61,397 bases of DNA, taken from IMG/VR virus record IMGVR_UViG_3300042566_000075, positions 1 to 61,397 of that record. One strand, written 5' to 3'. This stretch comes from a virus. Lineage: Duplodnaviria; Caudoviricetes. Position 1 is the first letter of the stretch. The number at the start of each line of letters is the position of its first letter. The notes beneath the pieces are model-generated. The model saw only the letters and a list, made by a program, of their open reading frames with translations, had not been told where the DNA came from and ran no database searches. Shown in pieces: positions 6,295 to 55,712 of the stretch. The position numbers were made by a program, and so were the translations under genes.

Positions 6295-9200
6295 CCGGTG
6301 CGGCTGCTTGAATACCCGGCAGTGCAAACGGCGCTTCCTTCTTAGTGAAGGTTGAACCGCGCATCTGGAGGTCCCGCTCACGCTTGAACGCGTCGTAGGA
6401 GTTCTGAACAGTTTCTTCCGTAACAACCAGTGGCTCGACGGGGTGCTTTTTGTTGTATTCCACGAGCTTACGCCCTGCCGCGTCCATGTCGGTACGGTCT
6501 CGACTACCGTTTGTTTCGAAGTTGTACATCGCTTCGTTGAGGTCCCGTAGAAGCGACGTGCGTTGTTTTTCCGCGGTAGCGAATAGTTTGTTCCGCGCAG
6601 CGCGCTCCTTCTGGATTTGCGCTAGTTTTGTGGAGCCGAAGCCGGAAAGCTGAGCACCCAGTTGCGAAGAGGTTATCTCTGACTTAGCCAGCATCGGTAG
6701 TTCGCCGCGTGTTTCCGCGCCTTCTTCGGACAAACGGTACGTAGTAGCTACACCCTTAAATGCAGCGGGGAGAACTTTCTCCAGACCGCGAACTACGTCA
6801 CCTTTATACATGTCGGTGAGACCTTCACCGATGCCGGTAATTAGCGAGAGTCCCGGCACGTTAGCTTCGAGTGTCCGGAAAATAGTTTCACTAGTGGTAT
6901 CCGCCGGTTTACCTTCACGGAACCAGAGACCATCAAAAGTAGTACGTGATCCGATGTTAATGTCGGATAGCTCGGATATTGGGCCATTTACCAATATGTC
7001 GCTCAAGCGGTGCTGCAAGCCATCTATACCCGGAATGGTAATTTCCCCGAACTTACTAGGCATAAACTCGTACCGGAACCTGTAGTCAGAGTCGTTAGCG
7101 GTATAAGGGTTGCGCAGACGGCGAAGCTGCGCCTCCTCGTCATCATCGTCAGCCTCAAGCATATCTATGATAGTAGCAATAGTGCTATACAGCGGGAAAC
7201 CAGTTATGCCGTGGAACAAACCACCCATAAGCAAGACGCCCGTCAGTTCGTTCATGGCCTTTAGCCGGTCTTCGACAGACAGAAAGCCTGTCTTGCCACC
7301 CGTCAAAATGCGACGGAAGTTGTTATAGAAGAACGTAGTGGTGTTAACGGCGTACTGCTTAAAGAGAAACAACGCACGGCCAACGTCAGTACCCATCAAA
7401 CGAGGGCGGTTGAAGTCGCTGTAGTTACCCAACGTATCGTTTACGACCCCCACTGCCTTATCAACAGCAGCGTCGAAGTCTTTAGATTTGTTGTACTCCA
7501 ACTCGAAAGCCATCATAAAAGCTATTTCGCGGGTGATACGCTCCGAGGTGTTAAACAACACGGACATGCCGTTTATCGTGGACTCAGCAAGCTGTCCCGG
7601 AGTATACTTAGAAGCTCGGTCGGGCGTAGCTCGACTATCGAGAATACCCGCTACCTGAGTTTCAAAGACAGAACGCTCGTCACGAGCCATGGCAAAAGCC
7701 CGCTTTAGTACCGGGTTGGACCGCACAAACTGAGACTCACCGACAGTAGGTCCAGTATAGGATAGCTCCCCGTCGTCTTCCTCGACGATACCTATAGAGT
7801 CCCATATCTTGGAATACTTAGCCAGCATGATCGAAGACTTGGCGTAGCCGTAATCAGTCCATAGGCGCGGCATCACGCGGACAGGTATACCCGTTGTTTG
7901 CGCTACTGCGGTAGCAGCAGAGGTAAGGAACCAAACAAACGCAGCGCGGTTCAGTCTCGTGACAACGCGACCCGGTTCCTCTGGATTTATCTGCTCTAGT
8001 GCACGCTCTCCGATTTCCACGACGAAGGACTCAAGGCGCGCAGCTTCATCTAGCGGGAAGCCATCAAGGGAAGCCTTCGCTTCTTCGATAGTGTTTTTAA
8101 TACGCTGAGTGTACCGTAGACTGGTAAGCTGGTTAGCGTACTGAAAAGCAGTGGTTTTAAAGTTGCGGAACACATCTGCGCTAAAACCCGTCACGTTATC
8201 AGCGTGTAGGAATTGCTTGCGGATGCTCCGCTCAGGCAGTGTCATCAGGTAAACTTGGTATATCTGGTCTTTAATAGCGCTTACATCGACCTTGCCTTGG
8301 GTAGACGCTTTGTTGATGACCGAGAATATCTCCTGCAACATCCCGCTCTCTTCTTGGAAATTTTCCCGCAGAGAAGTGATGTCGTTACCAATCCGGAATA
8401 TACCATCGGTCCGAGGTACCTTTAGCTCGCGGGCGCGTTTGCGCAGAAAATTGTTACGTGCCCGCGCGCTTTCAAAAGCATAGAACTCACGCCCAGCATC
8501 CCCCTTGCCGACACGTAGCCAGTAGTCGCCGTAACGCTTAAAGGGAAAGTACTGCTCAGGAAAAATCGCTGGGTCAACATCAGGAAACTCGTCGTCGGAC
8601 GACTCTAGCTTACTTACGCGTTCTTTCTCCCGCTCAAGGCGCACGGCCTTCAAAAGAGCTTTCTTAGAAGCGGGGTCGATATCCAGCTTTTTGATTTGCT
8701 CGTCGAGCAGTGTGCGTGTGGTGCTGAGCATATCTTTGTAGTAGTCACGTATCTCTACGTATTGCTTATGCCCATTTTCTTGCTTACCTAGCTCTTCCCA
8801 CAGGTCGTACACCTCTTCGATCTGCGTCCGACGTTGGGTCAACTTGCCTTTAAAAGCAGCTTTTTGTTTAGGTGTAGCGGCTTTGTCCGCAATCAAAGCT
8901 TCATATCGCCGTACAACAGGGTCGTTAACAAGGGCGTCCGCCACTGTGTCATGGGCAGTCGGGTCCACACGATTTAGACGCGCAAGATGCATAGTGCTGC
9001 CCAGCACCTTTTGGCCGTTCTTACCCACGAACTTGGCGAAGCGCTGTGATATCTTAGCGAACCCACTGAGGTAAGCATTACGTTCTGCTCGCGCTTCATC
9101 TTCGAGAGTGGCTATACGCCGCAGGGCGGGCACTTCGCCTTCTTTCCATGCAATAATCCCGTCGGAGGGTAGCGCGTACAAGATACGTTTGAGCATAGTA

Positions 9201-24173: not shown

Positions 24174-24357
24174 GCTCTTTCTCTTCACCCGTATCAATTA
24201 GCCATTCGGTGCAATAGCCCATAGCGATGCACTTGGGCTTCTTGCAGATTTCCTCCTGCCAGTTTTCTGGGTCTTGGCAGTCATAGCGATAGCGGTCTTC
24301 GCAGCCCATGAGGGCCAGCAAAGCTAGAAACAGTGCATATGGTTTGACGTTAACCAC
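24157..24357 (-). CDS. Cys-rich lipoprotein (o-spanin-like)
   Basis: GTG start, signal peptide with lipobox LMGC, four further Cys. Confidence 0.6.
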   Translation of the reverse strand: MVNVKPYALFLALLALMGCEDRYRYDCQDPENWQEEICKKPKCIAMGYCTEWLIDTGEEKEHEAEK

Positions 24358-45576: not shown

Positions 45577-45697
45577 CCTCACTTTGTTAGGTAGTTTCGT
45601 GCGATTTTTCTTGTGTTATCCCTCAAATTGTGGGACAAACAAATCATCGAGAGAGCAACAACGCTACTCGATACCACACACAATAGGAGCAAACATT

Positions 45698-46180
45698 ATG
45701 ACTAACACAGTATCAGTAACAGCAGCACGCAATGCCTACATGAAGGCTACCGAGTCTACATATGGTAAGCTGCGCGAATATGCCGAGAGCCTTACCGAGC
45801 AGCTAGGCGAAGGTTGGTGGCTTATCCCAATGAAAGGCCCGCTGTCTGGTAATGAAGCCAAGGTGCGGGAAGCTATCCGAGCAGAGAAGGCTCTAGTGCT
45901 TGAGCTAGCCAAGGAGAAGAAGGCCAAGAACCCTAAGTATAATGAGTATAAGCCTTGGTCTGACGTGCTTAAGTATGTGAAGCCTGAAGTCAAGAAGGGT
46001 GCTGGTGCTAATGCGCCACGGGATATCCACGACCGCTTTGTCACCGAGCTTACCAAGCTCTATAAGGCAGGCAAGGCAGATGAGAACCCGACCGAGGCAA
46101 CACTCGACGCTACGTTCTTTATCGGCAAGGGCCTCGAAATACTCGGCATCGACCTGACACAATTCAACCTAATGGACTAA
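45698..46180 (+). CDS. first early gene, hypothetical (160 aa)
   Basis: AGGAGCAAAC RBS before ATG 45698. Followed by two hairpins. Confidence 0.8.
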   Translation: MTNTVSVTAARNAYMKATESTYGKLREYAESLTEQLGEGWWLIPMKGPLSGNEAKVREAIRAEKALVLELAKEKKAKNPKYNEYKPWSDVLKYVKPEVKKGAGANAPRDIHDRFVTELTKLYKAGKADENPTEATLDATFFIGKGLEILGIDLTQFNLMD

Positions 46181-46187
46181 TCGGGAA

Positions 46188-46268
46188 GGGGAGGCGCAAG
46201 CCTCCCCGACCTAACTAAGTTACAACCCCTCACCGAACCCTCATGCGCAAGCATGGGGGTTTTTGTTT
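46188..46268 (+). terminator. GCAA-loop hairpin (46188-46207) plus intrinsic terminator (46236-46268)
   Basis: GGGGAGGC-GCAA-GCCTCCCC, then AACCCTCATGC-GCAA-GCATGGGGGTT-TTTGTTT. Confidence 0.85.
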
Positions 46269-46363
46269 GCACCTCGCACAGCAGGGTGAACGCGTCTAAC
46301 TTAGTTAGGTGTCGCCATGATAGTAGTCCTGCGGATGAGGCGACCAAGTGGGTAGGTGAAAAC

Positions 46364-46787
46364 CTTACAATACATAAACCTTACGTTACTAGCCCTAACT
46401 AAGTTAGACCCCCATGATAGTAAGCATGAGGATGAGGCGACCGAGGTATTGTAAGGAAAGTTGGGTAACGTAAGAAAAGTAAGCCCTATTGTAAGAAAAT
46501 GACCCACGCATTTCTGCGCTTTGTAAGGGTCGTAAGGGTTGTAAGGTTTTTTTCAGGGTTCGCTCCGGAAAGACGCCCTCTCGCAGATGCACCGCGTAAC
46601 CCGTAAGAAAAATCGCCCCAGCCCTTATTATTATTATTTTTACCTTACTTTCTTACATTACAACCAATTTCCTTACTGAAACCCGCAGGCTTCTGCCATT
46701 TTCTATTGTAAGTTTTTCTCTCTCACTTTTCTTACATTACCCCAATTTTCCTTACAAAGCGCAGTTTTCCGTCACCCATTTCCTTAC
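46364..46787. other. probable replication origin: inverted GTAAG/CTTAC iterons around an AT-rich core
   Basis: 18 GTAAG/CTTAC in about 425 bp. Orientation flips across TTATTATTATTATTTTT at 46625-46641. Confidence 0.7.
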
Positions 46788-46792
46788 ACTGC

Positions 46793-46870
46793 CTAACCTT
46801 GTTAGACGTGCCCGACCTCGTGCCCACATGACTTGACATAAGAGGGACTTTGTGTTACATTAAAAAGAAA
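46793..46870 (+). promoter_or_regulatory. early promoter module A
   Basis: Palindrome, CCCGACCTCGTGCCCACAT, TTGACA 46833-46838, 17 nt, TG-n-TACATT 46856-46861. Confidence 0.8.
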
Positions 46871-46930
46871 AACAAAAGGCCAGACAGGTTCGACCCAACG
46901 GACCTAACAAAGTTAGAGAAGGAGCAAAAT

Positions 46931-47122
46931 ATGCACTGCAATTGTGGCGATGAAATAAATCCGAGACGCGTAGCCCTTGGCTACCGAACATGTCCTGTGT
47001 GTGGGGACCGAGAGGCACGGCAGGTAAAGTTTACCACTGTGCCTCTCAACAAGTCCAACTACGTTGTGGTCTCCGACTACCGCGAACTGGCATGGCTCAA
47101 CCCTAAGAACGTCAACATCTAA
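46931..47122 (+). CDS. DksA/TraR-like C4 zinc-finger protein (63 aa)
   Basis: CNCGDEINPRRVALGYRTCPVC. GAAGGAGCAAA RBS. Confidence 0.6.
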   Translation: MHCNCGDEINPRRVALGYRTCPVCGDREARQVKFTTVPLNKSNYVVVSDYRELAWLNPKNVNI

Positions 47123-47133
47123 CAAAGTGAGGA

Positions 47134-47379
47134 ATGAAAATGGTTAGTGACTTAAGCATTAAGATGAAAGCGGCTGTCCTGCTACGCAGATATGACCAGC
47201 TACGCAGAGAGCTACGAGAGACAGAGTATGAGTTAGGCCCAGCCGTGGCCGAATACGGCATACAGACTGGACGCCGAGGCCTATCGAAAGACCACTTCCG
47301 TAGCGAACTTGAACGTGAGGAACTTATCCGACTGGAGATAGCAGCCGAGCGTGACGCATGGGAGAAAGCAAATGGATGA
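47134..47379 (+). CDS. hypothetical early protein
   Basis: 81-aa ORF with GAGG RBS. Confidence 0.65.
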   Translation: MKMVSDLSIKMKAAVLLRRYDQLRRELRETEYELGPAVAEYGIQTGRRGLSKDHFRSELEREELIRLEIAAERDAWEKANG

Positions 47380-47521
47380 GCTGAACGATTGGGACAAGGT
47401 AGCACTGGCCTTCGACATACTGGAGAACGCCGAGGTGATGCAGGAGTTTGACACAACACTATGGATACAGGTGGACCGCGACTTGTGGGAAGCCTTTTGC
47501 GAAGAAGGATATAACGGATGA
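47372..47521 (+). CDS. 49-aa acidic protein (not in ORF track), MDELNDWDKVALAFDILENAEVMQEFDTTLWIQVDRDLWEAFCEEGYNG
   Basis: GGAG RBS, overlaps both neighbours, 14 of 49 residues are D/E. Confidence 0.65.
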   Translation: MDELNDWDKVALAFDILENAEVMQEFDTTLWIQVDRDLWEAFCEEGYNG

Positions 47522-47676
47522 CCGAACAACCAACCAAAGACCGCAACTACTACCGCATGCTCACCAACAACGAGCTTATCGCCACCGCCAAGGAACGCTT
47601 ACACCTAACAGAGTTAGAGCAGGTGCTAACCGAGCGGTTACTAAAAGCCGAGCGCGAGAGGAAGAACAATGACTAA
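47518..47676 (+). CDS. 52-aa hypothetical protein (not in ORF track)
   Basis: ATGA overlap, AAGGA RBS. Confidence 0.6.
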   Translation: MTEQPTKDRNYYRMLTNNELIATAKERLHLTELEQVLTERLLKAERERKNND

Positions 47677-47767
47677 CACACTACTACATATAGCAGCCGA
47701 GATATTCTTCGTAAGCGCAGGTATCTTCGCAGTGTGGGCCATCCACACAACCATCAAGGGGAAATGA
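47669..47767 (+). CDS. 32-aa single-TM peptide (not in ORF track)
   Basis: MTNTLLHIAAEIFFVSAGIFAVWAIHTTIKGK. GAGG RBS, fills the gap. Confidence 0.55.
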   Translation: MTNTLLHIAAEIFFVSAGIFAVWAIHTTIKGK

Positions 47768-47768
47768 C

Positions 47769-48185
47769 ATGGGTTATCGGTCAGAAGTAGATGTAGTTAT
47801 CTACGCACCAGTGGACAGCGGCACATCATACCCGTTGCTCAAGCTGTGGTTCGACGAGAACTACCCCGTCAAGGAAGCCAAGGACGAATGGGAAGCGAGG
47901 ATTACCTACGACCCAGAGAGCCGAGGCATCTCCGTCTACTACAATGACGTGAAGTGGTATGACACCTACGAACATCCGCAAGCGGTGGAGAGAGTGTTCG
48001 ATGCCATCGACCGACTGCTAGACGAGCAAGCAGTGTTGGGCGACCCCACGGCGTTCAACATAGCATGGGAGTTTGTGCGCCTTGGCGAGGAAGACCAAGA
48101 CACCGAGATAAGGATGAGCGCCAACGCAGATGCGGTAATCGCAGTGAACCGCTCAACAGAGATATCGTTTCAATCACAAGCCTAA
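47769..48185 (+). CDS. acidic early protein (MGYRSEV...KWY...FVRLGE type)
   Basis: 138-aa ORF in the early operon. Confidence 0.75.
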   Translation: MGYRSEVDVVIYAPVDSGTSYPLLKLWFDENYPVKEAKDEWEARITYDPESRGISVYYNDVKWYDTYEHPQAVERVFDAIDRLLDEQAVLGDPTAFNIAWEFVRLGEEDQDTEIRMSANADAVIAVNRSTEISFQSQA

Positions 48186-48207
48186 CAAAGTTAGAAGGAG
48201 CAAACAC

Positions 48208-49152
48208 ATGGGCTGGAATAATCACTACCGCAACTGGGACATACCCAGACTTGCATCATACAACGACGCAGTGAAGCGCGAGGCGACAGTCAAACCTATT
48301 CGCGGCGATGCTAACGGAACTAAGCCGCTGGGTGCGCGCAACAAGAAATACTACAACATACGCAAGGAGGGTAATGACATCGTGGTGCGGATGCATGCCA
48401 CGGACATCGTGCGTTACCATCCAGATAATACGCTAACCATACAGAATGGTGGCTGGGTATCGCCCTCGACGCACGACATGTTCAACATGTTACTTGGGCT
48501 ACATATGCGCACCTTCCACTACAGGGCTTGGGTTACTTGCTACATGCGCAGGGCCATAGGGTCAAACGCGCCTGAGATTGTGCATGGCGAGTGGCGGCTA
48601 CCTAACAACGTGCCAGTGAGGATTGTCCCGCACGAAGGCCACTGGCTACTCGACGACATGGAAGAGAACGTGACGCATGCGGTCAACCGCAAGGCAGCTA
48701 ACAAAGTTAGGAAGGAATACGCAGGGTTTCGGACATACCTCTCCGCAATGACCAAGCTGCGCACCGAGTATGTATCGCAGCCGCGCTGGAATGGGCCTGA
48801 TGTGACCCTACCCGTGGTGAAGGTAAGCCGCAGTGAGCTTGAGGCGCACAACCTCATAGACTACACCGCTGTGGTGGAAGCTAACCGCAAGTGCGCGTCA
48901 CAAGGAGACAACCTCAAGGGACTGATACGTAGCGACAAGCCGGAGGATAACTACCGAGCCTTGCTTACTATCATGAGAAGTGCCCACGAGGGACGGTATT
49001 GGATTAGCTCCGAGGGTATATCCATCGCACCAGAGCGCATAACCAAAACGTTCGAAGAACTAGTCATGTTCATGCACCGCTATGAGGTGCTGGAGCGCAA
49101 GCCAGCGAAGCGGGGTGTGCCGACACGGGACCGCTATATAAATTGGTTCTAA
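48208..49152 (+). CDS. hypothetical early protein (314 aa)
   Basis: GAAGGAGCAAAC RBS. Confidence 0.8.
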   Translation: MGWNNHYRNWDIPRLASYNDAVKREATVKPIRGDANGTKPLGARNKKYYNIRKEGNDIVVRMHATDIVRYHPDNTLTIQNGGWVSPSTHDMFNMLLGLHMRTFHYRAWVTCYMRRAIGSNAPEIVHGEWRLPNNVPVRIVPHEGHWLLDDMEENVTHAVNRKAANKVRKEYAGFRTYLSAMTKLRTEYVSQPRWNGPDVTLPVVKVSRSELEAHNLIDYTAVVEANRKCASQGDNLKGLIRSDKPEDNYRALLTIMRSAHEGRYWISSEGISIAPERITKTFEELVMFMHRYEVLERKPAKRGVPTRDRYINWF

Positions 49153-49228
49153 CAAAGTTAGAGGTCCCCGACCTCGTGCCCACATCACTTGACTTGGGTA
49201 TATTATTGTGCTACAATAAAAAGAAAAA
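49149..49228 (+). promoter_or_regulatory. early promoter module B
   Basis: Palindrome, CCCGACCTCGTGCCCACAT, TTGACT 49189-49194, 17 nt, TG-n-TACAAT 49212-49217. Confidence 0.85.
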
Positions 49229-49291
49229 GCTGGGAAATCAGCCACCTAGAGTAAACAAACCTAACAAAGTTACACACGAAGGAGCAATATA

Positions 49292-50359
49292 ATGTCTATT
49301 GATTTTGGTTCAAACATCTCGCTTGCCGAAGCCGCAGAGCTTATCGCAGCTATCCCCGACAATCGGTTCCTACTTGAGGGTGAGCCTGGGATTGGCAAGT
49401 CCAGTATCATGAAGTCGCTCAAGGCCAAGCTAGGTGACCGCTACGTCTATGCCTACTTTGACTGCGCTCAGAAAGACCTTGGCGACATCGCCATGCCGAG
49501 CGTGAACCGCGAGCTACGGGTAACAGAGTATTTCCCCAATGCTGCGCTCCAGTTGCAGCATGGCAAGCCAGCAGTCATCATGCTTGACGAGTTTGCTAAG
49601 GCTCCGCCGCCTGTGCAGAATATGCTTCACCCGCTACTCGAAGAACACAACCCACGGCTAGGCGACATTGAGCTACATCCAGACTCAATCGTGTTCCTTA
49701 CGTCTAACTTGTCAAGCGATGGTGTTGGCGATGTTATCAAGGGCCATACTCTTAACAGAGTATCCAGAGTGCGCGTAGCCAAACCAGACAGCGACCAGTG
49801 GCTTGAGTGGGCTATCAACAACGACATCGAGCCTGTTGTCATGGCTTGGGTAAAGCAGTTCCCTCATGCGCTGGCTTCATACACTGACGGCACGCAGAAC
49901 GAGAACGCATATATCTACAACCCCAAGGCTATGCAAAAGTCGTATGTCAGCCCACGCTCTTTGTCTCGTGCTTCTAACATAGTTAGGCGTCGTGAGCAGG
50001 TATCATCCAACGCTCTTACCGCTGCGCTATCAGGCACAATCGGTGAGGCAGCAGCGCGGGATATGCAAGCCTACATCACATACCAAGACCAGCTACCGAC
50101 ATGGGAACACATCACATCCAAGCCCAATGATGCGGCTATCCCTGCGTCAGCAGGTGCATGTGCGGTGCTTATCTTCGGTGCAATCATGAAGGTGACCAAA
50201 GAGACAATGGCTCCGTTCATGACCTACCTGTCTCGCTTCGAACCAGAGTGGCAAGCATGCTTCGCTATTAACATTGCGAAGAACCCACAGCGTCAGTCGG
50301 TTGCGTTTTCATCCGCTGCGTTCGCTAACTGGGTGCGGGACAATGAGGACTTACTCTAA
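49292..50359 (+). CDS. MoxR/dynein-related AAA+ ATPase
   Basis: GEPGIGKS Walker A, IMLDEF Walker B, TSN sensor I, LNR and SPRS motifs. Confidence 0.88.
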   Translation: MSIDFGSNISLAEAAELIAAIPDNRFLLEGEPGIGKSSIMKSLKAKLGDRYVYAYFDCAQKDLGDIAMPSVNRELRVTEYFPNAALQLQHGKPAVIMLDEFAKAPPPVQNMLHPLLEEHNPRLGDIELHPDSIVFLTSNLSSDGVGDVIKGHTLNRVSRVRVAKPDSDQWLEWAINNDIEPVVMAWVKQFPHALASYTDGTQNENAYIYNPKAMQKSYVSPRSLSRASNIVRRREQVSSNALTAALSGTIGEAAARDMQAYITYQDQLPTWEHITSKPNDAAIPASAGACAVLIFGAIMKVTKETMAPFMTYLSRFEPEWQACFAINIAKNPQRQSVAFSSAAFANWVRDNEDLL

Positions 50360-50381
50360 TACCAACACAAGGAGCAAACTA

Positions 50382-51578
50382 ATGGATATGCAGAAAGCAG
50401 AGCGTAAGCTCAAGAAAGTCAAGATTAACCTCATGCGCAACCCCATGTTCGCATTGTGGTCTGGCATCATGATGGTCGGTAAGACTAGCGTAGCAGAGGA
50501 CGTGCCAACGGCATGCACCAATGGCCGCGACGAGATATACGGCTTGGAGTTCATAACAAAGTTAGACGAGAAGCAGCTAGGGTTCGTCGTGCTACACGAG
50601 AACATGCACAAGGGCTTACGCCACATGACAACATGGCAGAAGCTCCGAGCAGAGAACCCACGCCTAGCTAACATCGCAATGGACCATGTAATCAACCTTA
50701 TGATTATGGAGATGGACCCGAACGAGCAAGTCATCGCCATGCCTCGCCTTGATGATGGCACACCGATGGCGTGTTACGATACCAAATACAAAGGCATGAA
50801 CACCAAGCAAGTCTTCGACCTACTGAAGCAGGACAATCCAGATGGCGAAGGTGGCGAAGGCTTCGACGAGCATGACTGGGATGGGGCCAAGGAGATGACC
50901 GCCGAGGACCGCAAGGAACTAGAGCGCGAGGTGGACCAAGCCCTACGCCAAGGCCAGATAGCAGCTATGAAAGCTACGGGTAAAGGTGGGCTAAGTGTCA
51001 ACCGAGAGCTAGGCGACATGCTCCAGCCACAGATAGACTGGCGCGAAGCACTGCGTGAGTTTGTGTCCGCTACCTGCAATGCCAAGGATGCGTCATCATG
51101 GCGCAGGGTCAACAGGCGCATGCTGGGCCAAGATGTGTATCTTCCTACGCTAGTAGGGGAGAAGGTCGGACATATCGCTATCGGCATAGACACAAGTGGC
51201 TCTATCGGTGCGGACGAACTCAATGTGTTCCTGTCCGAGGTCAAGGCTATCGTCGAGGAGGTGCATCCCGACAAGCTAGACCTCATCTATTGGGATGGCA
51301 ACGTAGCGGGGCATGAGGTCTACGACATGGCAACTATGTCTAACCTTGTTAGCTCTACTAAGCCAGTAGGTGGAGGCGGCACTGACCCAACCTGTATGAT
51401 GCGCTACCTCAAGGAACAGAACATCAAGCCAGAGTGCATCATCCAGCTGACTGACGGGTATGTCTGTGACTGGGGTGACGAGTGGGATGCGCCCATCATG
51501 TGGGTAATCTCAGAGTCGCGCTACACATCGGGACGTATCGTAGCGCCAGTGGGTAAGACTGTGCATATCAAGGGGTAA
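50382..51578 (+). CDS. putative metallopeptidase plus VWA-like domain protein (DUF2201-type)
   Basis: TACTNG, HENMH (HExxH), IDTSGSI MIDAS, GGGGT and LTDG motifs. Start at ATG 50382. Confidence 0.85.
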   Translation: MDMQKAERKLKKVKINLMRNPMFALWSGIMMVGKTSVAEDVPTACTNGRDEIYGLEFITKLDEKQLGFVVLHENMHKGLRHMTTWQKLRAENPRLANIAMDHVINLMIMEMDPNEQVIAMPRLDDGTPMACYDTKYKGMNTKQVFDLLKQDNPDGEGGEGFDEHDWDGAKEMTAEDRKELEREVDQALRQGQIAAMKATGKGGLSVNRELGDMLQPQIDWREALREFVSATCNAKDASSWRRVNRRMLGQDVYLPTLVGEKVGHIAIGIDTSGSIGADELNVFLSEVKAIVEEVHPDKLDLIYWDGNVAGHEVYDMATMSNLVSSTKPVGGGGTDPTCMMRYLKEQNIKPECIIQLTDGYVCDWGDEWDAPIMWVISESRYTSGRIVAPVGKTVHIKG

Positions 51579-51588
51579 GGAGCAAACA

Positions 51589-51834
51589 ATGACTAAAGCA
51601 ATCATACGTTACGGCTACGACAACTATATCGTGGAGGCAGAGGATGCGCTGCGCATACATGAAATCCTAGCCAAGGCTGAACACTACCATAGGAACTACC
51701 GCTCAACAGCAGATGGCGGCACTACCTACCATGTCTGGGAGCAGGACATGAGCAGTGAGATGCGTGACATAACGCTTATGCCCGATGGCCTTTACCGCAT
51801 GGCAAAGCTGGCGGGTAAACCAGAAGATAAATAA
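51589..51834 (+). CDS. hypothetical early protein
   Basis: 81 aa, AAGGAGCAAAC RBS. Confidence 0.75.
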   Translation: MTKAIIRYGYDNYIVEAEDALRIHEILAKAEHYHRNYRSTADGGTTYHVWEQDMSSEMRDITLMPDGLYRMAKLAGKPEDK

Positions 51835-51896
51835 AATACCGGATAGCAAACCGGACGACCTAACTAGGTTACATATAACACAATAGGAGCAAACTA

Positions 51897-52739
51897 ATGA
51901 GCATTACATCTTCGTCGGTTCTTGTCGAACTGAACATCTCCGTCTGGACAGCCAACAAGCTGGACAAGGACACCACCACCAAGCTGACCGCTGACAGCAA
52001 CGCGACTAGCGACGCAGCCCAAGTGCGTAAGAACCTCATGGCTGGCACAACCTTACGCAAGGACATAGCGGACTTCGCTGCGCTGTGCCGCACATGGCAC
52101 AACAGCCAGACCCTACCTTGGGCAGACCGAGGTTCTAGGCTACTACCCACAAGCCTCTTCATGGCATACAAGACCGAGGTTAACGCACGACGCGCTACGT
52201 TCACGCAGTTGGTAGATAAGTTTCGCCTCGAATACCCGAAGCTGATGACCACTGCGGCACAGCACATGGGCGACCTACATGACCCTGCAGATTATCCGAG
52301 CGTGGATGAGGTGATGGACAAGTTTGGCTTCCGCCTTGTGTTCTCTCCTGTGCCAGAGGCGGGTGACTTCCGTGTGGACATACCCAACCAAGAACTCGAC
52401 GCCATACGCAAGGAATATGATGCTAACTTTGTTAGCCGTGTTGACGAAGCCATGCGCACCCCGTGGGAGCAACTGCACAAGATGCTGACCACTATGTCTA
52501 ACAAGCTAGGGCTAGAGGAGAAGACCCGCTGGCACGACACCTTCCTCACGAACGCACAGGAGATGTGCGGGATGCTTACTCACCTCAACCTCACTGGCGA
52601 CCCCAAGCTAGAGGATGCGCGGCGCAAGCTGGAGTCGGCGTTGATTGGCTTGGATATTGATGACCTCAAGGAAAGCGAAGACATCCGCACCAACGTCAAG
52701 GGCAAGCTCGATACAATCCTTTCGGGATTTGATTGGTAA
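51897..52739 (+). CDS. DUF3150-like protein
   Basis: LNISVW..TLPW...G.RLLP...LNLTGDP.L pattern. Linked to the AAA/VWA pair. Confidence 0.65.
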   Translation: MSITSSSVLVELNISVWTANKLDKDTTTKLTADSNATSDAAQVRKNLMAGTTLRKDIADFAALCRTWHNSQTLPWADRGSRLLPTSLFMAYKTEVNARRATFTQLVDKFRLEYPKLMTTAAQHMGDLHDPADYPSVDEVMDKFGFRLVFSPVPEAGDFRVDIPNQELDAIRKEYDANFVSRVDEAMRTPWEQLHKMLTTMSNKLGLEEKTRWHDTFLTNAQEMCGMLTHLNLTGDPKLEDARRKLESALIGLDIDDLKESEDIRTNVKGKLDTILSGFDW

Positions 52740-52762
52740 GGCACAGGTAAGGAGTAACAACA

Positions 52763-53632
52763 ATGACTAAGCAACTATACCCATGCGAGGGTTTCCCGAA
52801 CGTATATATCAACCGCAACCCCGCCTTCGTAGACCGTACTACGCGGTTTGTGGTCCACGACAGGATGCTACCTCTAATAGAGGAGCTGTGTAAGCACCGC
52901 CCACAATGGACGTTTAAATCCCTTAACGCATCAATAAACACAGATGTAGTGGCGGCACATCACTTTGATGTTTATGAGAACGGCCAGTCGCTAGGCGAAA
53001 TCTCCGTTGAGTCAGGCTATCGCGCTGATACAGGGTCGATAACCTATTACCGGTTCGACAACCCAAGGTTGTCCGGTAAGCGCCAGCGCGGTATTTGGAA
53101 TAAAACCAGTAAGCTCGACCTAGCAGTGAAGAACATACTTAAAGCCTTTCACGCTAAGACGTTAGCCGAGACCATTGTAGAGGTCGAGCGACAGATAGAG
53201 GTTAAGCTGAACGAGAATACTAGGACTGCTAATGCAGATTTTGACAGCGGCTTCAGACGCATGGGCGCGTTCCTCACGGGATATGTAATGAGAAACTGGG
53301 ATGCGGTAGCACCTGCGCTAAAGGCAGCGGGCGCACCAGTGCCAGACGACCTGCCTGAGCGTCTTGCCGTTAGGAACGAAGCAGAGGGTGTAGAACTGGC
53401 CTACCGCAACCAAGGAGGGTTTACTATAATCACGCGAGGCAGCGACTACATCATGGTGCGCGGCTTCGGGGACGAGCGAGAGACAGAGGTCAAGTCCAGC
53501 GAACAGCTGACAGACAACATCCGCCGTAACCTTGGCTTCCTCAAACTGACCGAGGGCAGTGCGATTATACCCAACGTAGGTGTGCGACTTAACGAGAGCA
53601 CCTTCTTTGTTATTGATAAGGAACTTGTATGA
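52763..53632 (+). CDS. hypothetical early protein (289 aa)
   Basis: AAGGAGTAAC RBS. Confidence 0.8.
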   Translation: MTKQLYPCEGFPNVYINRNPAFVDRTTRFVVHDRMLPLIEELCKHRPQWTFKSLNASINTDVVAAHHFDVYENGQSLGEISVESGYRADTGSITYYRFDNPRLSGKRQRGIWNKTSKLDLAVKNILKAFHAKTLAETIVEVERQIEVKLNENTRTANADFDSGFRRMGAFLTGYVMRNWDAVAPALKAAGAPVPDDLPERLAVRNEAEGVELAYRNQGGFTIITRGSDYIMVRGFGDERETEVKSSEQLTDNIRRNLGFLKLTEGSAIIPNVGVRLNESTFFVIDKELV

Positions 53633-53805
53633 CCGAGGAACTAAAACGCAAACGCGGACAGCGTGGGCTGGGCAAGCGTCCGGCCTTGGGAGGTCACGTT
53701 ACCATACGCCTATCGAGCGAAGCTATGGACTTCTATAGGAGCTTCCCTAGCTTCACAGCTAAGATGCGTGAAGTCTTAACAGACTACGCTGATACACACA
53801 GATAA
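53629..53805 (+). CDS. 58-aa BrnA-antitoxin-like ribbon-helix-helix protein (not in ORF track)
   Basis: RGQRGLGKRPALGGHVTIRLSSEAMDFYRSFPSFTAKMREVL fits the GRP..VTIRL..V..F...RIN..L layout. ATGA overlap, AAGGA RBS. Confidence 0.7.
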   Translation: MTEELKRKRGQRGLGKRPALGGHVTIRLSSEAMDFYRSFPSFTAKMREVLTDYADTHR

Positions 53806-53863
53806 CATATAGTTGCTCCTAACTATGTTAGACTAGGCCGCCTTTCGGGGCGGTCTTTTTTTT
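53803..53863 (+). ncRNA. candidate anti-Shine-Dalgarno small RNA 2 (3'-UTR hairpin with GCUCCU loop plus terminator)
   Basis: TAACAT(AT)AGTT-GCTCCT-AACTATGTTA hairpin at 53803-53830, then terminator. Confidence 0.5.
53836..53863 (+). terminator. rho-independent terminator ending the early operon
   Basis: GGCCGCCT-TTCG-GGGCGGTC followed by T8. Confidence 0.92.
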
Positions 53864-53875
53864 CTTCATTAGCGT

Positions 53876-53903
53876 TTGACAATGTAAATTGAGGGTGTAT
53901 GGT
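53876..53903 (+). promoter_or_regulatory. sigma70-like middle promoter
   Basis: TTGACA 53876-53881, 16 nt, TATGGT 53898-53903. Confidence 0.6.
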
Positions 53904-53929
53904 GAGGAGCCAAACAAGGAGTAAACAAG

Positions 53930-54130
53930 ATGAATAATACAAGAGAACTTCGCGCATTCCTAGTCGAACAGATGCAGGGTGTAGCTTCGGGTAAGGTCAA
54001 CAGTGAGAAGGCCAAGTCCATTTCCAACCTGTCACAGCAAATCTACAACACCATTAACATCGAAGTGAAGATGGCGTTGTCGAAGGCAAAGCTGAATGGG
54101 CAAAGCCTAGATGCTGTCGAGTTCAATTGA
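53930..54130 (+). CDS. hypothetical protein (66 aa)
   Basis: AAGGAGTAAAC RBS. Confidence 0.75.
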   Translation: MNNTRELRAFLVEQMQGVASGKVNSEKAKSISNLSQQIYNTINIEVKMALSKAKLNGQSLDAVEFN

Positions 54131-54812
54131 CCTAACAGCACTTCCTGATGACCTCGTCCGTCAACTGGAACGCACCGTCACAGACTACGAGCGTAAGCAG
54201 AATAAGCTACGCTCATGGCAAGAGGTGCTTGACCACGGGACGGACGAGGAAATCATGGAGAAAGCGCAGGAGGAGTGCGACAAGGGCGCACCCATTACCT
54301 TTGCACGGAACTACCCTAGGATTGGCTGGCCGTTAATGACAGACCTAGCCCGTGAGATTGTCCCGTACAATATGCGAGACCATCCGCGCAGACCCGTCAT
54401 CATGAAGGGTGCAATAGAAATCTGCTACAGGAGGTTTTCGCTATCAGAGGGCCGCAACGCACCAAACGGCTGGGTAATCCGTGTCTTTGAACGGGCAATG
54501 CGTATGAGCAAGAAGACGCTCATCGAGTGGCAGGAAATATCAGACTTCGCTAGTGAGCTAGCAACTAAGATTGCTAACCGGCATTACGGAGTAACCTACC
54601 ACTTTTGGGACTATACCAGACCCCGAAGGTATGAAGCCCGTCGAGATGAACAATTAGTTTTGATGAGCGGACGCTGGGTTAGCCTACCGCACGAACAATA
54701 TAGAAACGTGCAGATGTTCCAAAAGGTAATCCGCAAGACAGAGAAGCTGGAAGACCGACTGGCACTACTACGCGCAGCAAGGAAAGAACGAGCCGATGGC
54801 AGCAACACCTGA
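54111..54812 (+). CDS. hypothetical protein (233 aa)
   Basis: Long ORF overlapping both neighbours. Confidence 0.7.
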   Translation: MLSSSIDLTALPDDLVRQLERTVTDYERKQNKLRSWQEVLDHGTDEEIMEKAQEECDKGAPITFARNYPRIGWPLMTDLAREIVPYNMRDHPRRPVIMKGAIEICYRRFSLSEGRNAPNGWVIRVFERAMRMSKKTLIEWQEISDFASELATKIANRHYGVTYHFWDYTRPRRYEARRDEQLVLMSGRWVSLPHEQYRNVQMFQKVIRKTEKLEDRLALLRAARKERADGSNT

Positions 54813-55101
54813 GAAGAAAGTGAAGGATAAGGTTAAGTCCATCCTCACTGCACACGAGACATATTTTTTTCTACCCGCAACCCACGGCTTTGGCCGTAGC
54901 GGTGTCCCCGACATTGTAGCCTGTGTGAACGGTTGGTTCCTTGCGATTGAGTGCAAGGCAAACGGTGGTAAGACTACTGCCCTACAGGTGCGCGAGATTG
55001 AAGCGATACGCAGGTCTAACGGCGTAGCCGTAGTAGTAGACGAGACGAACTACGACATGCTCCCTGACCTCATCAAAAAACTGAAAGGGGAAACACGGTG
55101 A
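54796..55101 (+). CDS. VRR-NUC domain nuclease (Holliday junction resolvase-like)
   Basis: TPEKKVK, GVPDIV, AIECKA and TALQ motifs. Confidence 0.88.
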   Translation: MAATPEKKVKDKVKSILTAHETYFFLPATHGFGRSGVPDIVACVNGWFLAIECKANGGKTTALQVREIEAIRRSNGVAVVVDETNYDMLPDLIKKLKGETR

Positions 55102-55394
55102 ACCAAGGTGTAGAGCTTTTACTCCAGCGGATGGATAGCCACCCTGAAGAGTTTAACACACACAACCCAGACAAGCGCGTCCGCGAGAAGTGGCACTGGG
55201 TGACGGGGCCGATTAAGACGCGGATGGACTTTATGAATAGGAACCCAGACGACGACCCAGTGATGCACTTCGAGTCCCTTGGGTTCCTGACAGACCGCGA
55301 AATCCTCATGCTTCATGATAAGTATATGAGCATCCAAGGAGACAGCTTCAGTCGCAGGGTTATGGCTACGCTACTAACAGATGGCGAAGCCTAA
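55098..55394 (+). CDS. hypothetical protein
   Basis: GTGA overlap, 98 aa. Confidence 0.7.
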   Translation: MNQGVELLLQRMDSHPEEFNTHNPDKRVREKWHWVTGPIKTRMDFMNRNPDDDPVMHFESLGFLTDREILMLHDKYMSIQGDSFSRRVMATLLTDGEA

Positions 55395-55436
55395 CAGAGT
55401 TAGGTGTGGATACTATCATAGGAAGGAGCAGAGGCG

Positions 55437-55712
55437 ATGAACGAGGAATATATTGAAGTCCTTAAGGCTATCAAAGGTGTAGGGGCAACGCTGGCCCGCC
55501 GTATACCGAAGGAGCTAGAGCGGCAGGGGCTGACCATCTACAAGAAGAAAGTTTTTGTGAACGGTCGCCGTCCCAACAGCAGCCAGCCTATGACCCCAGA
55601 GCTACGCGCTGCTATACTTGAATATTTTGAAGGTGACCCTGAGGTTACGCAGCAGGAGATAGCCAACATGTTTAACGTGAACATTGGGCGCGTGAACGAG
55701 GTGCTCTCGTGA
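55437..55712 (+). CDS. HTH protein
   Basis: TQQEIANMFNVNIGRVNEVL. GGAAGGAGCA RBS. Confidence 0.75.
   Translation: MNEEYIEVLKAIKGVGATLARRIPKELERQGLTIYKKKVFVNGRRPNSSQPMTPELRAAILEYFEGDPEVTQQEIANMFNVNIGRVNEVLS

Follow-up and report, generated by a model that had tools for sequence, protein, structure and literature searches.

The window analysed here, i.e. the whole stretch of DNA, is a complete virus record of 61397 bases (61.4 kb) from an uncultured, podovirus-like phage of lake water, and it raises a simple question: what is the role of a short palindrome, CTAACNNNGTTAG, that recurs over some 10 kb of this genome? The phage is apparently lytic; neither an integrase nor an immunity repressor was detected among its genes, and no close cultured phage was found. 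The 127-base repeat at the ends of the record is read as an assembly overlap. The array region carries bacterial-type promoters and ribosome sites and probably holds the genes that are switched on first, where the term 'early' is based on promoters and gene order only. The reading that we prefer, and to which we give an even chance, is that the 19 palindromes are operators for a phage-encoded regulator that blocks transcription after initiation, with the small protein p58 as candidate.

The palindromes form a confined array

A scan of the window recovered 13 perfect sites, all in 46296-55403 (Table 1), against a mean of 0.07 (maximum 2) in 100 dinucleotide-preserving shuffles, close to the chance level of about 0.06 per genome given in an earlier note on this DNA. 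When one mismatch was allowed 20 sites were found (shuffles: mean 1.93, maximum 7), and 19 of these, the 13 perfect copies and 6 with one mismatch, lie within 45578-55403 (9.8 kb), at exactly the coordinates listed in that note. No copies had been noticed there in the other 51 kb, which holds for the perfect sites, but there is one near-match at 24350, TTAACCACGTTAG, which for 51 kb is no excess above chance. The reversed pattern, taken as a control, gave 0 matches. A comparable density outside the early region was not seen in this genome-wide scan, and the confinement extends to all of the five related records, each of which has 9-12 perfect sites within ~10 kb. The left-arm TAA indeed serves as stop codon of four ORFs and six sites indeed lie within ORFs, as had been claimed, whereas the spacer is A/T-centred in most sites (17/19) and not strictly: 11 sites have A at the centre, 6 have T and 2 have G. 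AAA (7) and TTT (2) are among the spacer trinucleotides of the 19 sites.

Table 1. Palindromic sites, promoters and the p58 gene in the array region (window coordinates)
Feature	Coordinates	Strand	Match or sequence	Context
Site 1	45578..45590		one mismatch, CTCACTTTGTTAG	divergent region, 33 bp from first leftward (structural-side) gene starting 45545
Site 2	46211..46223		one mismatch (GTTAC)	immediately ahead of terminator-like hairpin 46235-46262
Site 3	46296..46308		perfect	opens first ~99-bp tandem unit, non-coding region
Site 4	46395..46407		perfect	opens second ~99-bp tandem unit
Site 5	46793..46805		perfect	centre ~-69 of P1
Promoter P1	46833..46861	+	TTGACA-17-TACATT, TG before -10	consensus match only
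Site 6	46904..46916		perfect	centre ~+42 of P1; 1 nt ahead of Shine-Dalgarno of next gene
Site 7	47119..47131		one mismatch (GTGAG)	TAA stop of ORF 46850-47122
Site 8	47605..47617		perfect	within ORF 47448-47672
Site 9	48182..48194		perfect	TAA stop of ORF 47769-48185; p314 Shine-Dalgarno directly after
Site 10	48698..48710		perfect	within p314 (48208-49152)
Site 11	49149..49161		perfect	TAA stop of p314; centre ~-69 of P2
Promoter P2	49189..49217	+	TTGACT-17-TACAAT, TG before -10	consensus match only
Site 12	49261..49273		one mismatch (GTTAC)	centre ~+43 of P2; upstream of ATPase gene
Site 13	49974..49986		perfect	within MoxR-like ATPase gene (49292-50359)
Site 14	50553..50565		one mismatch (ATAAC)	within DUF2201 gene; putative site, window's subclade only
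Site 15	51340..51352		perfect	within DUF2201 gene
Site 16	51860..51872		one mismatch (GTTAC)	upstream of p280
Site 17	52423..52435		perfect	within p280 (51897-52739); window's subclade only
p58 gene	53629..53805	+		ribbon-helix-helix-like, candidate binder; last gene of P2 operon
Site 18	53819..53831		perfect	between p58 stop codon and terminator-like hairpin 53835-53856
Promoter P3	53876..53903	+	TTGACA-16-TATGGT	no site downstream
Site 19	55391..55403		perfect	TAA stop of ORF 55098-55394; upstream of non-conserved 91-aa HTH gene; last site of array

The spacing of the sites bears on the possibility that a protein which organises the DNA, and not its transcription, uses them for nucleation or bridging, with a role in compaction, insulation or protection of the first 10 kb, in the control of the neighbouring origin-like region, or as an entry ratchet. 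In close relatives the sites are spaced more evenly than random (CV 0.36 in L016 and 0.26 in L008, a regularity that none of 5000 random placements reached), and near-even intervals of ~0.5-0.8 kb are found in L016, L008, L027, L020 and L022, the intragenic sites filling the gaps within long genes. Moreover, most sites are away from promoters, and four of them flank an iteron-rich, origin-like block in which an AT run is surrounded by 13 YGTAAGR repeats (46363-46788). In the window itself, however, the evenness is not significant (CV 0.72, P 0.13), and a search of the early proteins for ParB-like or other spreading families gave none. In addition, the candidate binder is encoded in the region and would be made from it, so that it could not protect the DNA or pull it in on arrival. 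We consider a DNA-organising role unlikely, and the suggestion made before, that the sites are handles for DNA entry or protection, found no support.

Conservation of the sites in related phages

Many of the sites have counterparts in relatives. Site 1 is matched by a site 19-68 bp from the start of the orthologous gene in L010, L017, L030/L031, L033 and L040, site 2 is perfect in L005 and L014, and L010, L012, L013, L015 and L018 likewise have a site ahead of the ATPase gene. Among the matches listed, site 15 is kept in the window's subclade and in L010, and L033 has GATAAC, an outer mismatch; the site is also kept in L030, L035 and L020.

Synonymous-site conservation of the intragenic copies, proposed earlier as a check, was found for the sites in the ATPase gene and in p314. 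The ATPase site at 49974 is perfect in 10 of the 13 orthologues while neighbouring codons vary. It has one mismatch in L014 (GTG) and is lost in L009 (AGC TAC ATC GTG CGA), where alternative codons leave the residues S, V and R unchanged. Of 33 orthologues of p314, 19 have the core TAAC-N3-GTTA at the same codons; the protein is 23-39% identical between lineages and the core is kept at identities down to 23-27%. Judged from these orthologues, the array sites are conserved under selection at the level of the DNA.

This conservation at fixed codon positions across deep divergence speaks against the idea that the repeats serve mainly in recombination, as junction linkers that shuffle early cassettes, and have no direct regulatory role. 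It is true that many sites lie exactly at gene junctions, that the gene content of the left part of the array differs among relatives and that 53929-54795 is replaced by other sequence in other lake strains. Nevertheless, the replaced segment is not bounded by sites, and copying of whole linkers would not produce variable spacers between invariant arms. Such a linker function seems very improbable indeed.

The core TAAC-N3/4-GTTA persists across lineages in which the ATPase is only 52-62% identical. This persistence, together with the observation that p58 is not detectable in every core-bearing lineage, would suit recruitment by the phage of a host transcription factor that binds the palindrome. 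However, the G+C content of relatives with the TAAC core ranges from 42% to 54%, which is taken as a sign of different hosts and would favour a phage-encoded reader. More distant relatives have quite different palindromes in equivalent places, the pattern that a phage carrying both reader and site would be expected to give, and the sole match in the genome collection was a phage-sized contig inside a MAG. A host factor is thus judged quite improbable.

Position relative to promoters and genes

The centres of the sites next to P1 (-35 at 46833) and P2 (-35 at 49189) lie at ~-69 and +42/+43 of the estimated start, in agreement with the earlier description of copies that bracket both strong promoters. 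This geometry recurs among 25 strong promoters of 14 genomes: a site centre falls at +42 to +60 in 14 of them and at -56 to -73 in 7, and at -50 to +40 in none (0/25). Core sigma-70 promoters are avoided, and the sites are located at leaders, at gene junctions and inside long genes. Of 142 intergenic sites, 44 (~1/3) are positioned 5-24 nt ahead of a start codon, and 23 share bases with the stop codon upstream.

Duplex DNA or RNA hairpin

The positions in leaders, ahead of start codons and over stop codons would also suit hairpins in the early RNA (stem of 5 bp, loop of 3-4). Lying in leaders and between cistrons, such hairpins would be targets of a phage RNA-binding protein or nuclease that sets the translation, processing or decay of early messages, or else would act as weak attenuators. 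L028, L030, L031, L039 and L040 each have both spacer lengths, 3 and 4, within a single genome, which is easy for a loop and unusual for a rigid dimer. Moreover, the equivalent palindromes in the distant relatives L074, L084 and L058 are long-stemmed and followed by T runs, and one variant of L074 is flagged as a terminator. Finally, the absence of covariation between invariant arms, reported before, holds within this genome, but between lineages the outermost pair differs on both arms (C-G, A-T, G-C, T-A). In the case of L035 the four C-G sites, which gave the impression of a link between the two arms, all lie at the left end (3249-4715), which fits a mosaic better than arm pairing.

Several comparisons argue against pairing in RNA. 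At the central base neither strand is preferred (AAT 109 versus ATT 88 in 389 dereplicated sites from 39 genomes), and complementary flanks are not more frequent than in within-genome shuffles (129 versus 136, 92 versus 103.5 and 49 versus 72.6 in 296 sites), the flank preference being symmetric (C/T at -2 versus G/A at +2). Among 81 one-mismatch variants, 4 would allow G-U pairing on the sense RNA versus 10 of the mirror kind, so that a G-U bias is lacking. The stems have little stability (-1.9 to -5.3 kcal/mol), and shuffled sequences match it in 3-25 of 200 cases. Proteins that read RNA loops usually require a conserved loop rather than a conserved stem; the window's subclade shows the reverse, with invariant arms around a free spacer, and in other lineages the symmetry (TAACA-W-TGTTA) reaches further inwards, to positions at which a hairpin could not form pairs. 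A terminator-like structure is not seen at any of the 19 sites, and there was no Rfam match (E up to 1). Furthermore, a sense-RNA element is unlikely at 46296, 46395 and 46793, three sites that have a 12-pair terminator-like hairpin on one side and P1 on the other, and at 45578, which is in the divergent region.

Taken together, the tests of central base, flanks, G-U pairing and stem stability favour a protein that reads double-stranded DNA over a hairpin, and we regard the hairpin as rather unlikely. Hence, of the earlier interpretation, the preference for a dimeric DNA-binding protein is supported, although the mixed spacers and the palindromes with T runs cut against it.

A candidate regulator

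The protein p58 (58 residues) has a basic N-terminal tail rich in Arg, Gly and Lys. An HMM of the family matched in 30 loci, all of which belong to lineages with the TAAC core. Considering the loci that cover the interval from p280 to Hjc, p58 is present in 26 of 38 TAAC-rich versus 2 of 34 TAAC-poor loci, and the order gene, site, hairpin, TTGACA is found in 7 of 10 relatives. The association is confounded by shared ancestry and is not absolute. L009 and L011 have p58 and almost no sites in the parts covered by their contigs, whereas no p58 was detectable in L042 (GTAACA-W-TGTTAC, 10-11 sites) and in the TTAAC lineages L060, L062, L070 and L081, which do have the core. L013 and L015 lack p58 and encode a different small protein, which gives weak matches to AT-hook and RepB-RCR_reg; in L013 a site precedes its gene.

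A ribbon-helix-helix (RHH) fold of p58 is weakly supported. Six of 15 family members have weak matches to BrnA (RHH), the best of which (E 0.0051) is below the cut-off of Pfam; several relatives were named 'DUF4415 family' by JGI, and the best PDB profile matches have E-values of 0.15-0.52. The AF2 monomer is predicted to have two helices following an extended segment (mean pLDDT 65). Residues of the predicted strand vary (T/H/N/S/P at one position), whereas the core motif is constant. The RHH-like protein at 53629, one of the binders proposed in the earlier note, is the best candidate, by association only.

Comparison with known systems

The closest published analogue would be the 17-bp dyad repeat 5'-TGTTCGG-N3-CCGAACA, found in dozens of copies in Cluster O mycobacteriophages; its authors predicted a dimeric DNA-binding protein and, in the available text, left the function of the repeat unexplained (PMC4351075). 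It may be alike in working and belongs to a separate sequence family. As described in that text, both systems have invariant inverted arms, a variable 3-bp spacer (with TTT/AAA commonest in Cluster O) whose orientation is meaningless relative to transcription, many intergenic copies with about one third inside coding regions (here 6/19), and phages that are not obviously temperate (PMC4351075). The differences are arms of 7 bp there versus 5 bp here, of unrelated sequence, and a genome-wide spread there versus confinement to ~10 kb here (PMC4351075), next to the contrast between mycobacteriophages and uncultured lake-water phages. The present array adds the deep synonymous-site conservation of intragenic copies, the spacer variants of 3 and 4 and the recurrent position at +42 to +60.

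In phage L5 numerous 13-bp stoperators are dispersed in transcribed DNA, and the phage repressor bound to them terminates elongation, by which a block of genes is silenced; the Cluster A phages are temperate. The many dispersed 13-bp sites in transcribed DNA make the two systems comparable. The stoperators are asymmetric, as the earlier note had stated, and bound by a monomeric repressor according to the text available of PMC9283540, and their orientation follows transcription (discussion of PMC4351075). In contrast, the sites of this phage are palindromic and without orientation, and, as mentioned above, no integrase and no immunity repressor were found.

In the text available of PMC3203893, the SAS and ESAS of Cluster K are conserved repeats just upstream of translation starts, the former asymmetric and tightly tied to start codons and the latter inverted repeats whose spacers vary. 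Their conservation goes together with that of the gene family downstream, and their function was left unexplained. Here, only about one third of the intergenic sites is near starts and many sites are inside genes or near promoters.

RHH repressors of the CopG, Arc and MetJ type act at a promoter through a single operator or a few of them. The likeness consists of a small RHH-like protein with a basic N-terminal arm that is encoded beside the sites, where one dimer per arm would be possible. The number of sites (19 over 10 kb), none of which covers a core promoter, and the weak support for the fold of p58 set the array apart.

Proposed role of the array

In the operator reading, one symmetric phage protein would bind all sites as double-stranded DNA, most likely p58 and then probably as a dimer of dimers with one dimer per arm. 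As p58 is encoded by the last gene of the P2 operon, it would build up while the early genes are read. Considering that the core promoters are left uncovered and that the sites are in leaders, 56-73 bp upstream of starts, at junctions and within long genes, the main effect of the bound protein would come after initiation, where the occupied sites would form a row of roadblocks irrespective of orientation, with neighbouring sites possibly bridged. The outcome would be feedback control, followed by the shut-down of the entire early block; the region-wide silencing or roadblock suggested earlier fits the positions of the sites. Given that many uncultured relatives keep the sites, the array is most likely a docking set for a phage regulator of those genes.

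The palindrome array and its genomic setting

The array of CTAAC-N3-GTTAG palindromes is real and far beyond chance. Perfect copies number 13 in the window, all at 46296-55403; dinucleotide-preserving shuffles average 0.07 copies and reach two at most. A scan that allowed up to one mismatch yielded 20 sites against a shuffled mean of 1.93 and a largest value of 7. Nineteen of these 20 fall within the array; the remaining one, at 24350, represents the chance level for the 51 kb outside it. The pattern read backwards, taken as a control, had no match in the window. The whole-window scan thus returned the nineteen sites of the earlier note at the same coordinates, and what that note had said of their disposition was borne out as well: the TAA of the left arm is the stop codon of the ORFs that end at 47122, 48185, 49152 and 55394, six of the 19 sites lie inside ORFs, and both strong sigma-70-type early promoters, P1 and P2, are bracketed by sites centred at about -69 and about +42/+43. 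The central base of the spacer is A in 11 sites, T in six and G in two. Contigs of four lake runs differ from the window at 40 listed positions and 655 more; none of those listed is in an arm and one is in a spacer (46303), which is uninformative on arm conservation because only about 0.8 would be expected in the arms.

At 61,397 bases the window covers a complete virus record, and the 127 bases repeated at its ends we read as an assembly overlap. Its genes form two divergent blocks (see the table). Profile scans of 77 ORFs against PHROGs or Pfam found no integrase, CI-like or other immunity repressor, or partition gene, and the window scans found neither an RNA polymerase nor a tRNA. The phage looks lytic and podovirus-like, its transcription would depend on the host RNA polymerase, and the large polyvalent protein is probably an ejected internal protein. 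We infer that the palindrome block is early, since its promoters are strong and of consensus type and it precedes the replication genes. A nucleotide search for near-identity of the region in 50,697 phage records gave no match, and in the ATPase protein search all relatives were below 60% identity, the 25 matches listed being 23-25% identical and mostly from N4-like and Vibrio phages, many of them annotated as N4 gp24-like. By these searches the phage has no close cultured relative. Its DNA is present in many lake-water metagenomes, and one RNA run contains 6% of the sampled words. The sole match of the host search in a genome collection was L086, a contig of 61.7 kb from a MAG that bears the title Candidatus Sericytochromatia, with an ATPase of 62% identity, a GTAACC-NN-GGTTAC variant of the palindrome and a p58-like gene. 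It was set aside as host evidence since the contig is phage-sized and may be mis-binned; the assignment may be a host hint or a binning artefact.

Several further features of the block were observed. An origin-like, non-coding stretch contains 13 of the 37 YGTAAGR heptamers of the genome, ordered as two reverse, seven forward and four reverse copies around an AT run, and is about 92% conserved in the related loci L005 and L014; four palindrome sites surround it. Each of two tandem units of about 99 bp opens with a palindrome site, after which comes a conserved YATGATAGTA box, and contigs of several lake runs end within this stretch. Other lake-run contigs differ by strain-level cassettes, one in which 230 other letters are swapped in and one with about 255 letters inserted, both just past promoter P3. 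The gene starts in 45690-55440 have unusually uniform ribosome-binding sites (GGAGCAA), 5-9 nt ahead of the start codon.

Coordinates of the features of the window
Feature	Position	Strand	Content or remark
Leftward gene block	45545 down to 6287	-	terminase, portal, major head protein, tail fibres, endolysin, 'DNA ejection protein', DarB-like protein
Rightward gene block	45698 across the record ends to 6210	+	small proteins without assigned function, then ATPase and replication genes
Polyvalent protein, 2075 aa	6287-12514	-	LPD39 domain and DarB-like C-terminal half; ends the virion gene block
MoxR-like ATPase	49292-50359	+	rightward block
DUF2201 metallopeptidase/VWA protein; small Hjc-like nuclease			rightward block
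Family-A DNA polymerase, exonuclease, SNF2 helicase, DUF927 primase-helicase			rightward block
Palindrome array	45578-55403		19 sites
Tandem units	46296-46440		two
Origin-like block	46363-46788		YGTAAGR heptamers
AT run	46625-46642		within origin-like block
19-base box	46811-46829; 49167-49185		two identical copies
P1, predicted promoter	46833		position of -35
P2, predicted promoter	49189		position of -35
P3, predicted promoter	53876		position of -35
p314	48208-49152
p280	51897-52739
p58	53629-53805	+	RHH-like candidate reader; last gene of the P2 operon
Strain-level cassette, swapped	53929-54795
Strain-level cassette, inserted	55091/55099

Conservation and variation among relatives

The ATPase search gave 14 related loci from uncultured phages, and a profile of the ATPase gave 220 relatives, the best 80 of which were kept as 79 loci. 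Whole-record scans of five relatives (four complete, one 72% complete) revealed 9-12 perfect sites in each, every one of them within about 10 kb, and no match to the control pattern in any. In close relatives, with an ATPase of 98% identity, the arms are exact and the spacers differ (e.g. CTAACCTTGTTAG versus CTAACCTAGTTAG). The core that remains constant among the related lineages is TAAC-N3/4-GTTA, the outermost pair, which depends on the lineage, being C-G, A-T, G-C or T-A. In the window's subclade the spacer is of 3 bases and free in sequence, most other lineages have CTAACA-W-TGTTAG, and the loci L013, L015, L036, L037 and L041 have the 4-base form CTAACA-NN-TGTTAG. Both spacings occur in one locus in L028, L030, L031, L039 and L040. 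In L040 all 13 four-spacer sites are intergenic and three of the four three-spacer sites are the old intragenic ones, positions at which an added base would break the reading frame.

The intragenic copies allow the DNA and the protein to be compared at the same positions. The site within the ATPase gene reads TCT AAC ATW GTT AGG/AGC and is perfect in 10 of 13 orthologues, with variable codons next to it. It has one mismatch (GTG) in L014, and in L009 it has simply decayed (AGC TAC ATC GTG CGA), as three residues are unchanged there by way of alternative codons. The gene for p314 evolves fast, its product being 23-39% identical between lineages, yet 19 of 33 orthologues hold the TAAC-N3-GTTA core at one and the same codon position; in those that lack the core the amino acids at this position differ as well. 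The site at 51340, in the DUF2201 gene, is kept also in other lineages, and those at 50553 and 52423 were seen in the window's subclade only. Judged from these orthologous genes, the array is conserved under selection at the level of the DNA.

Relatives with an ATPase of 45-50% identity have unrelated palindromes, namely GTGGCA-N4-TGCCAC, GTATCA-N4-TGATAC, TTCACAA-N2-TTGTGAA, TACTGTC-N-GACAGTA and GTATA-N4-TATAC. These occupy equivalent places, and two TTGACA-17-TATAAT promoters of the AT-rich distant relative L074 each have one centred at about +48. The same locus has palindromes with stems of 12-14 pairs followed by T runs (3941-3973 and 8115-8150), 40-85 nt after consensus promoters, which resemble leader terminators. 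In locus L067 (5971-6389) the first gene after one copy of GTGGCA-N4-TGCCAC codes for an HTH_31 (Cro/C1-type) protein that may be the cognate reader of that lineage's palindrome.

Recognition as duplex DNA or as RNA

The symmetry tests used copies from 38-39 genomes, pooled and dereplicated by context. No strand preference is seen at the central base (AAT 109, ATT 88, AAAT 21, ATTT 13), and the flanks show mirror-image base preferences (C/T at -2 versus G/A at +2, and A/G at -3 versus T at +3). Complementarity of the flanks over 296 sites was observed in 129, 92 and 49 cases, versus 136.0, 103.5 and 72.6 upon shuffling of the right flanks within each genome; as the flanks are no more complementary than shuffled ones, the two halves vary independently in the manner of half-sites and do not extend a stem. 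The mismatch in the one-mismatch variants inside the arrays (n=81) is at the outermost position in 56; four of the 81 would retain pairing by G-U in the sense RNA, as compared with ten mirror-kind variants. The symmetry in many lineages takes in the inner A and T that flank a single central base and that cannot pair in a hairpin. An apparent linkage of the arms in locus L035 (C-G in 4 sites, A-T in 12) was rejected, being positional instead, with all four C-G sites at the left end of the array.

If the sites acted as hairpins in the transcript, their placement 5-24 nt ahead of a start codon in 44 of 142 intergenic cases would be accounted for, and the presence of 3- and 4-base spacers within one genome and the long palindromes with T runs in some distant relatives speak for the same explanation. 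The corresponding stems are weak, with 5 bp, two G-C pairs and -1.9 to -5.3 kcal/mol. An intrinsic terminator has a G+C-rich stem and then a T run, and the 11 terminator-like hits in the window include none of the 19 sites; a search of Rfam gave no match to the sites. The combination of an invariant stem and a free loop in the window's subclade better fits a protein that sits on two major-groove half-sites over an uncontacted spacer than an RNA-binding protein that reads the loop, a preference based on general knowledge of such proteins. We consider it likely, overall, that the sites are recognised as duplex DNA, counting together their possible roles as operators, as DNA-organising sites and, in part, as sites for a host factor.

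Placement of the sites

A survey of 25 strong promoters from 14 genomes (score at least 11 of 13) showed that the sites avoid the core promoters. Site centres between -50 and +40 were found at none of the 25, at +42 to +60 they were found at 14, and at -56 to -73 at seven. A near-match site lies 33 bp from the first leftward gene, and a counterpart is present 19-68 bp from the start of the orthologous gene in at least five other lineages. The sites are spaced far more evenly than random in the 82%-identity relatives L016 (CV 0.36) and L008 (CV 0.26), with none of 5000 random placements as even, and more evenly than random also in L027, L020, L022 and L035. The spacing in the window is not significantly even (CV 0.72, P 0.13), since sites cluster at the left and two long gaps follow at the right. 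DNA looping between the sites at -69 and +42/+43 was considered and rejected for want of a conserved phase between the two, their distance being 111-112 bp here versus 124 bp in L016; most relatives have one site only. The 19-base box CCCGACCTCGTGCCCACAT occurs in identical form at P1 and P2, in each case between the -35 and the palindrome upstream of it; it may be a second site for regulation or a remnant of a duplication.

Candidate binding proteins

Ribbon-helix-helix (RHH) repressors are dimers with a strand-helix-helix fold. The 58-residue protein p58 has a basic N-terminal tail (KRKRGQRGLGKRPA), a short segment of alternating hydrophobic residues (HVTIRLS) and then two helices, and in the AF2 model of the monomer helices 30-38 and 42-56 follow an extended segment (mean pLDDT 65). 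Matches to the RHH family BrnA_antitoxin were obtained with six of 15 p58 members, all below the cut-off (best E 0.0051), a profile match from the PDB, 2q2k, had an E of 0.52, and several of the 577 p58 relatives carry the JGI label 'DUF4415 family'. Prediction of a complex of two copies scored 0.38 against a mark of 0.42 and counts neither way. Membership of the RHH family is thus weakly suggested.

An HMM built on 15 orthologues found the p58 family in 30 loci, all of lineages with the TAAC core, and in L086 besides. Where the interval from p280 to the Hjc-like gene is covered, p58 is present in 26 of 38 TAAC-rich and in two of 34 TAAC-poor loci, a contrast that is confounded by ancestry; the TAAC-rich class also takes in some AT-rich genomes with chance matches. 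In seven of ten relatives a site comes directly after the p58 gene, and then a terminator-like hairpin and a TTGACA promoter. By this gene order and co-occurrence p58 is a candidate reader of the palindromes. Against it, L042 and the lineages with TTAAC have sites and no detected p58, L009 and L011 have p58 and almost no sites in the contig halves scanned, and p58 varies in its putative strand residues under a constant core motif.

Other proteins were considered as well. L013 and L015, which lack p58, encode a different small protein, which gives weak matches to AT-hook and RepB-RCR_reg and in L013 has a site ahead of it. The 91-aa HTH/sigma-region-4-like protein at 55437 was ruled out as binder, because no relative encodes it. 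The AlphaFold model of p314 is confident (pLDDT 88.8) and has no clear structural match (best E 0.07 with Foldseek, best Z 4.1 with VIA-align). Clusters of the ESM Atlas were uninformative, with Kyano_Gp96 in 11% of the members for p314 and DUF3150 in 12-17% for p280.

Comparison with known systems

The closest likeness is to a repeat of the Cluster O mycobacteriophages. That repeat is a 17-bp sequence, TGTTCGG-N3-CCGAACA, with invariant 7-bp inverted arms and a 3-bp spacer that is mostly TTT or AAA, in 34 copies without orientation that are spread throughout the genome, about a third of them in coding regions (PMC4351075). These phages are described as not obviously temperate and the function of the repeat as unknown, and the authors predicted a dimeric binder that acts elsewhere than at initiation (PMC4351075). 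The palindromes of the window likewise have invariant inverted arms, a variable 3-bp spacer and many copies, both intergenic and intragenic, whereas their sequence is different and they are confined to the array region. They are therefore of the same kind and of a different family. New with respect to the Cluster O case are the confinement to one block, the deep conservation of intragenic copies, the natural variants in spacing and sequence, and a candidate reader.

The stoperators of Cluster A (L5-type) are 13-bp sites whose orientation follows transcription, their reader being a temperate phage's immunity repressor. They stop elongation, are asymmetric and are read by a monomer (PMC9283540). 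The array resembles them in having many sites in transcribed DNA away from the promoters. It differs in that its sites are palindromic, with a central base free of strand bias, and in that the profile scans found no integrase, CI-like repressor or partition gene. The SAS/ESAS repeats of Cluster K are tied to start codons (PMC3203893).

Hairpin promoters of the N4-like virion RNA polymerase were compared as well. The ATPase is 'N4 gp24-like', at about 24% identity. The 2075-aa virion-side protein has matches to the LPD39 and DarB-like families only, and a sequence search of the PDB gave no polymerase match for it. The N4-like virion RNA polymerase is a giant protein, and its promoter has a direction, with transcription starting a few bases downstream and space left for a leader. 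In contrast, several sites of the array end 1-14 nt ahead of a start codon or ribosome site, others are inside ORFs or directly before a terminator-like hairpin, and no signal of orientation was found. Systems of the ParB/KorB type combine dispersed palindromic operators with a ParB-family protein; no ParB-like family was found among the early-region proteins with Pfam (E up to 0.01-1), several of these proteins being without any family. A literature search for the name or string of the motif found no paper, most subscription journals being outside its coverage.

Proposed function

The earlier note had interpreted the array as a region-wide means of silencing or blocking transcription, bound by a dimeric protein. 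This is supported in part: the existence of the sites, their confinement to the block, their symmetry, their conservation under selection on the DNA and their avoidance of core promoters are shown, and binding by a protein, the identity of that protein, repression and timing are proposed. A symmetric protein made by the phage, probably p58, would accumulate while the P2 operon is read and would bind the 19 sites. The bound protein would then stop RNA polymerase once initiation is over, at the sites in the leaders and at one point after another along the operons, whichever way the polymerase moves, with feedback control and finally closure of the early block as the outcome. We give even chances to such a shutdown of the early block, after initiation, by a phage-made protein on these sites.

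Alternatively, the array could be a phage 'macrodomain', comparable to MatP/matS or ParB/parS, the organisers of bacterial chromosomes, in which a small RHH protein spreads or bridges from near-even sites and folds the early block into a closed nucleoprotein body. We regard this as improbable. It would imply about one nucleation site per 0.5-0.8 kb, maintained within essential genes throughout the existence of the clade, and a 10-kb region that is physically switched off in a lytic phage that lacks its own RNA polymerase; on this view a flexible dimer of dimers, reading the arms one by one, would explain why 3- and 4-bp spacers are tolerated.

A few cultured phages are known to have dispersed invariant palindromes. 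The present array offers a cleaner case, being restricted to a single temporal block, with synonymous intragenic conservation across at least 220 uncultured relatives and a candidate reader adjoining it, and the natural variants (the outer pair, the 3- or 4-base spacer and the other palindromes at equivalent places) form a ready-made mutant series. If post-initiation blocking by a phage-made protein is true, site and protein would constitute a compact pair amenable to testing in a reporter system, with no need of the host, and a lytic phage that uses the RNA polymerase of its host would close its early genes after initiation and not at the promoter.
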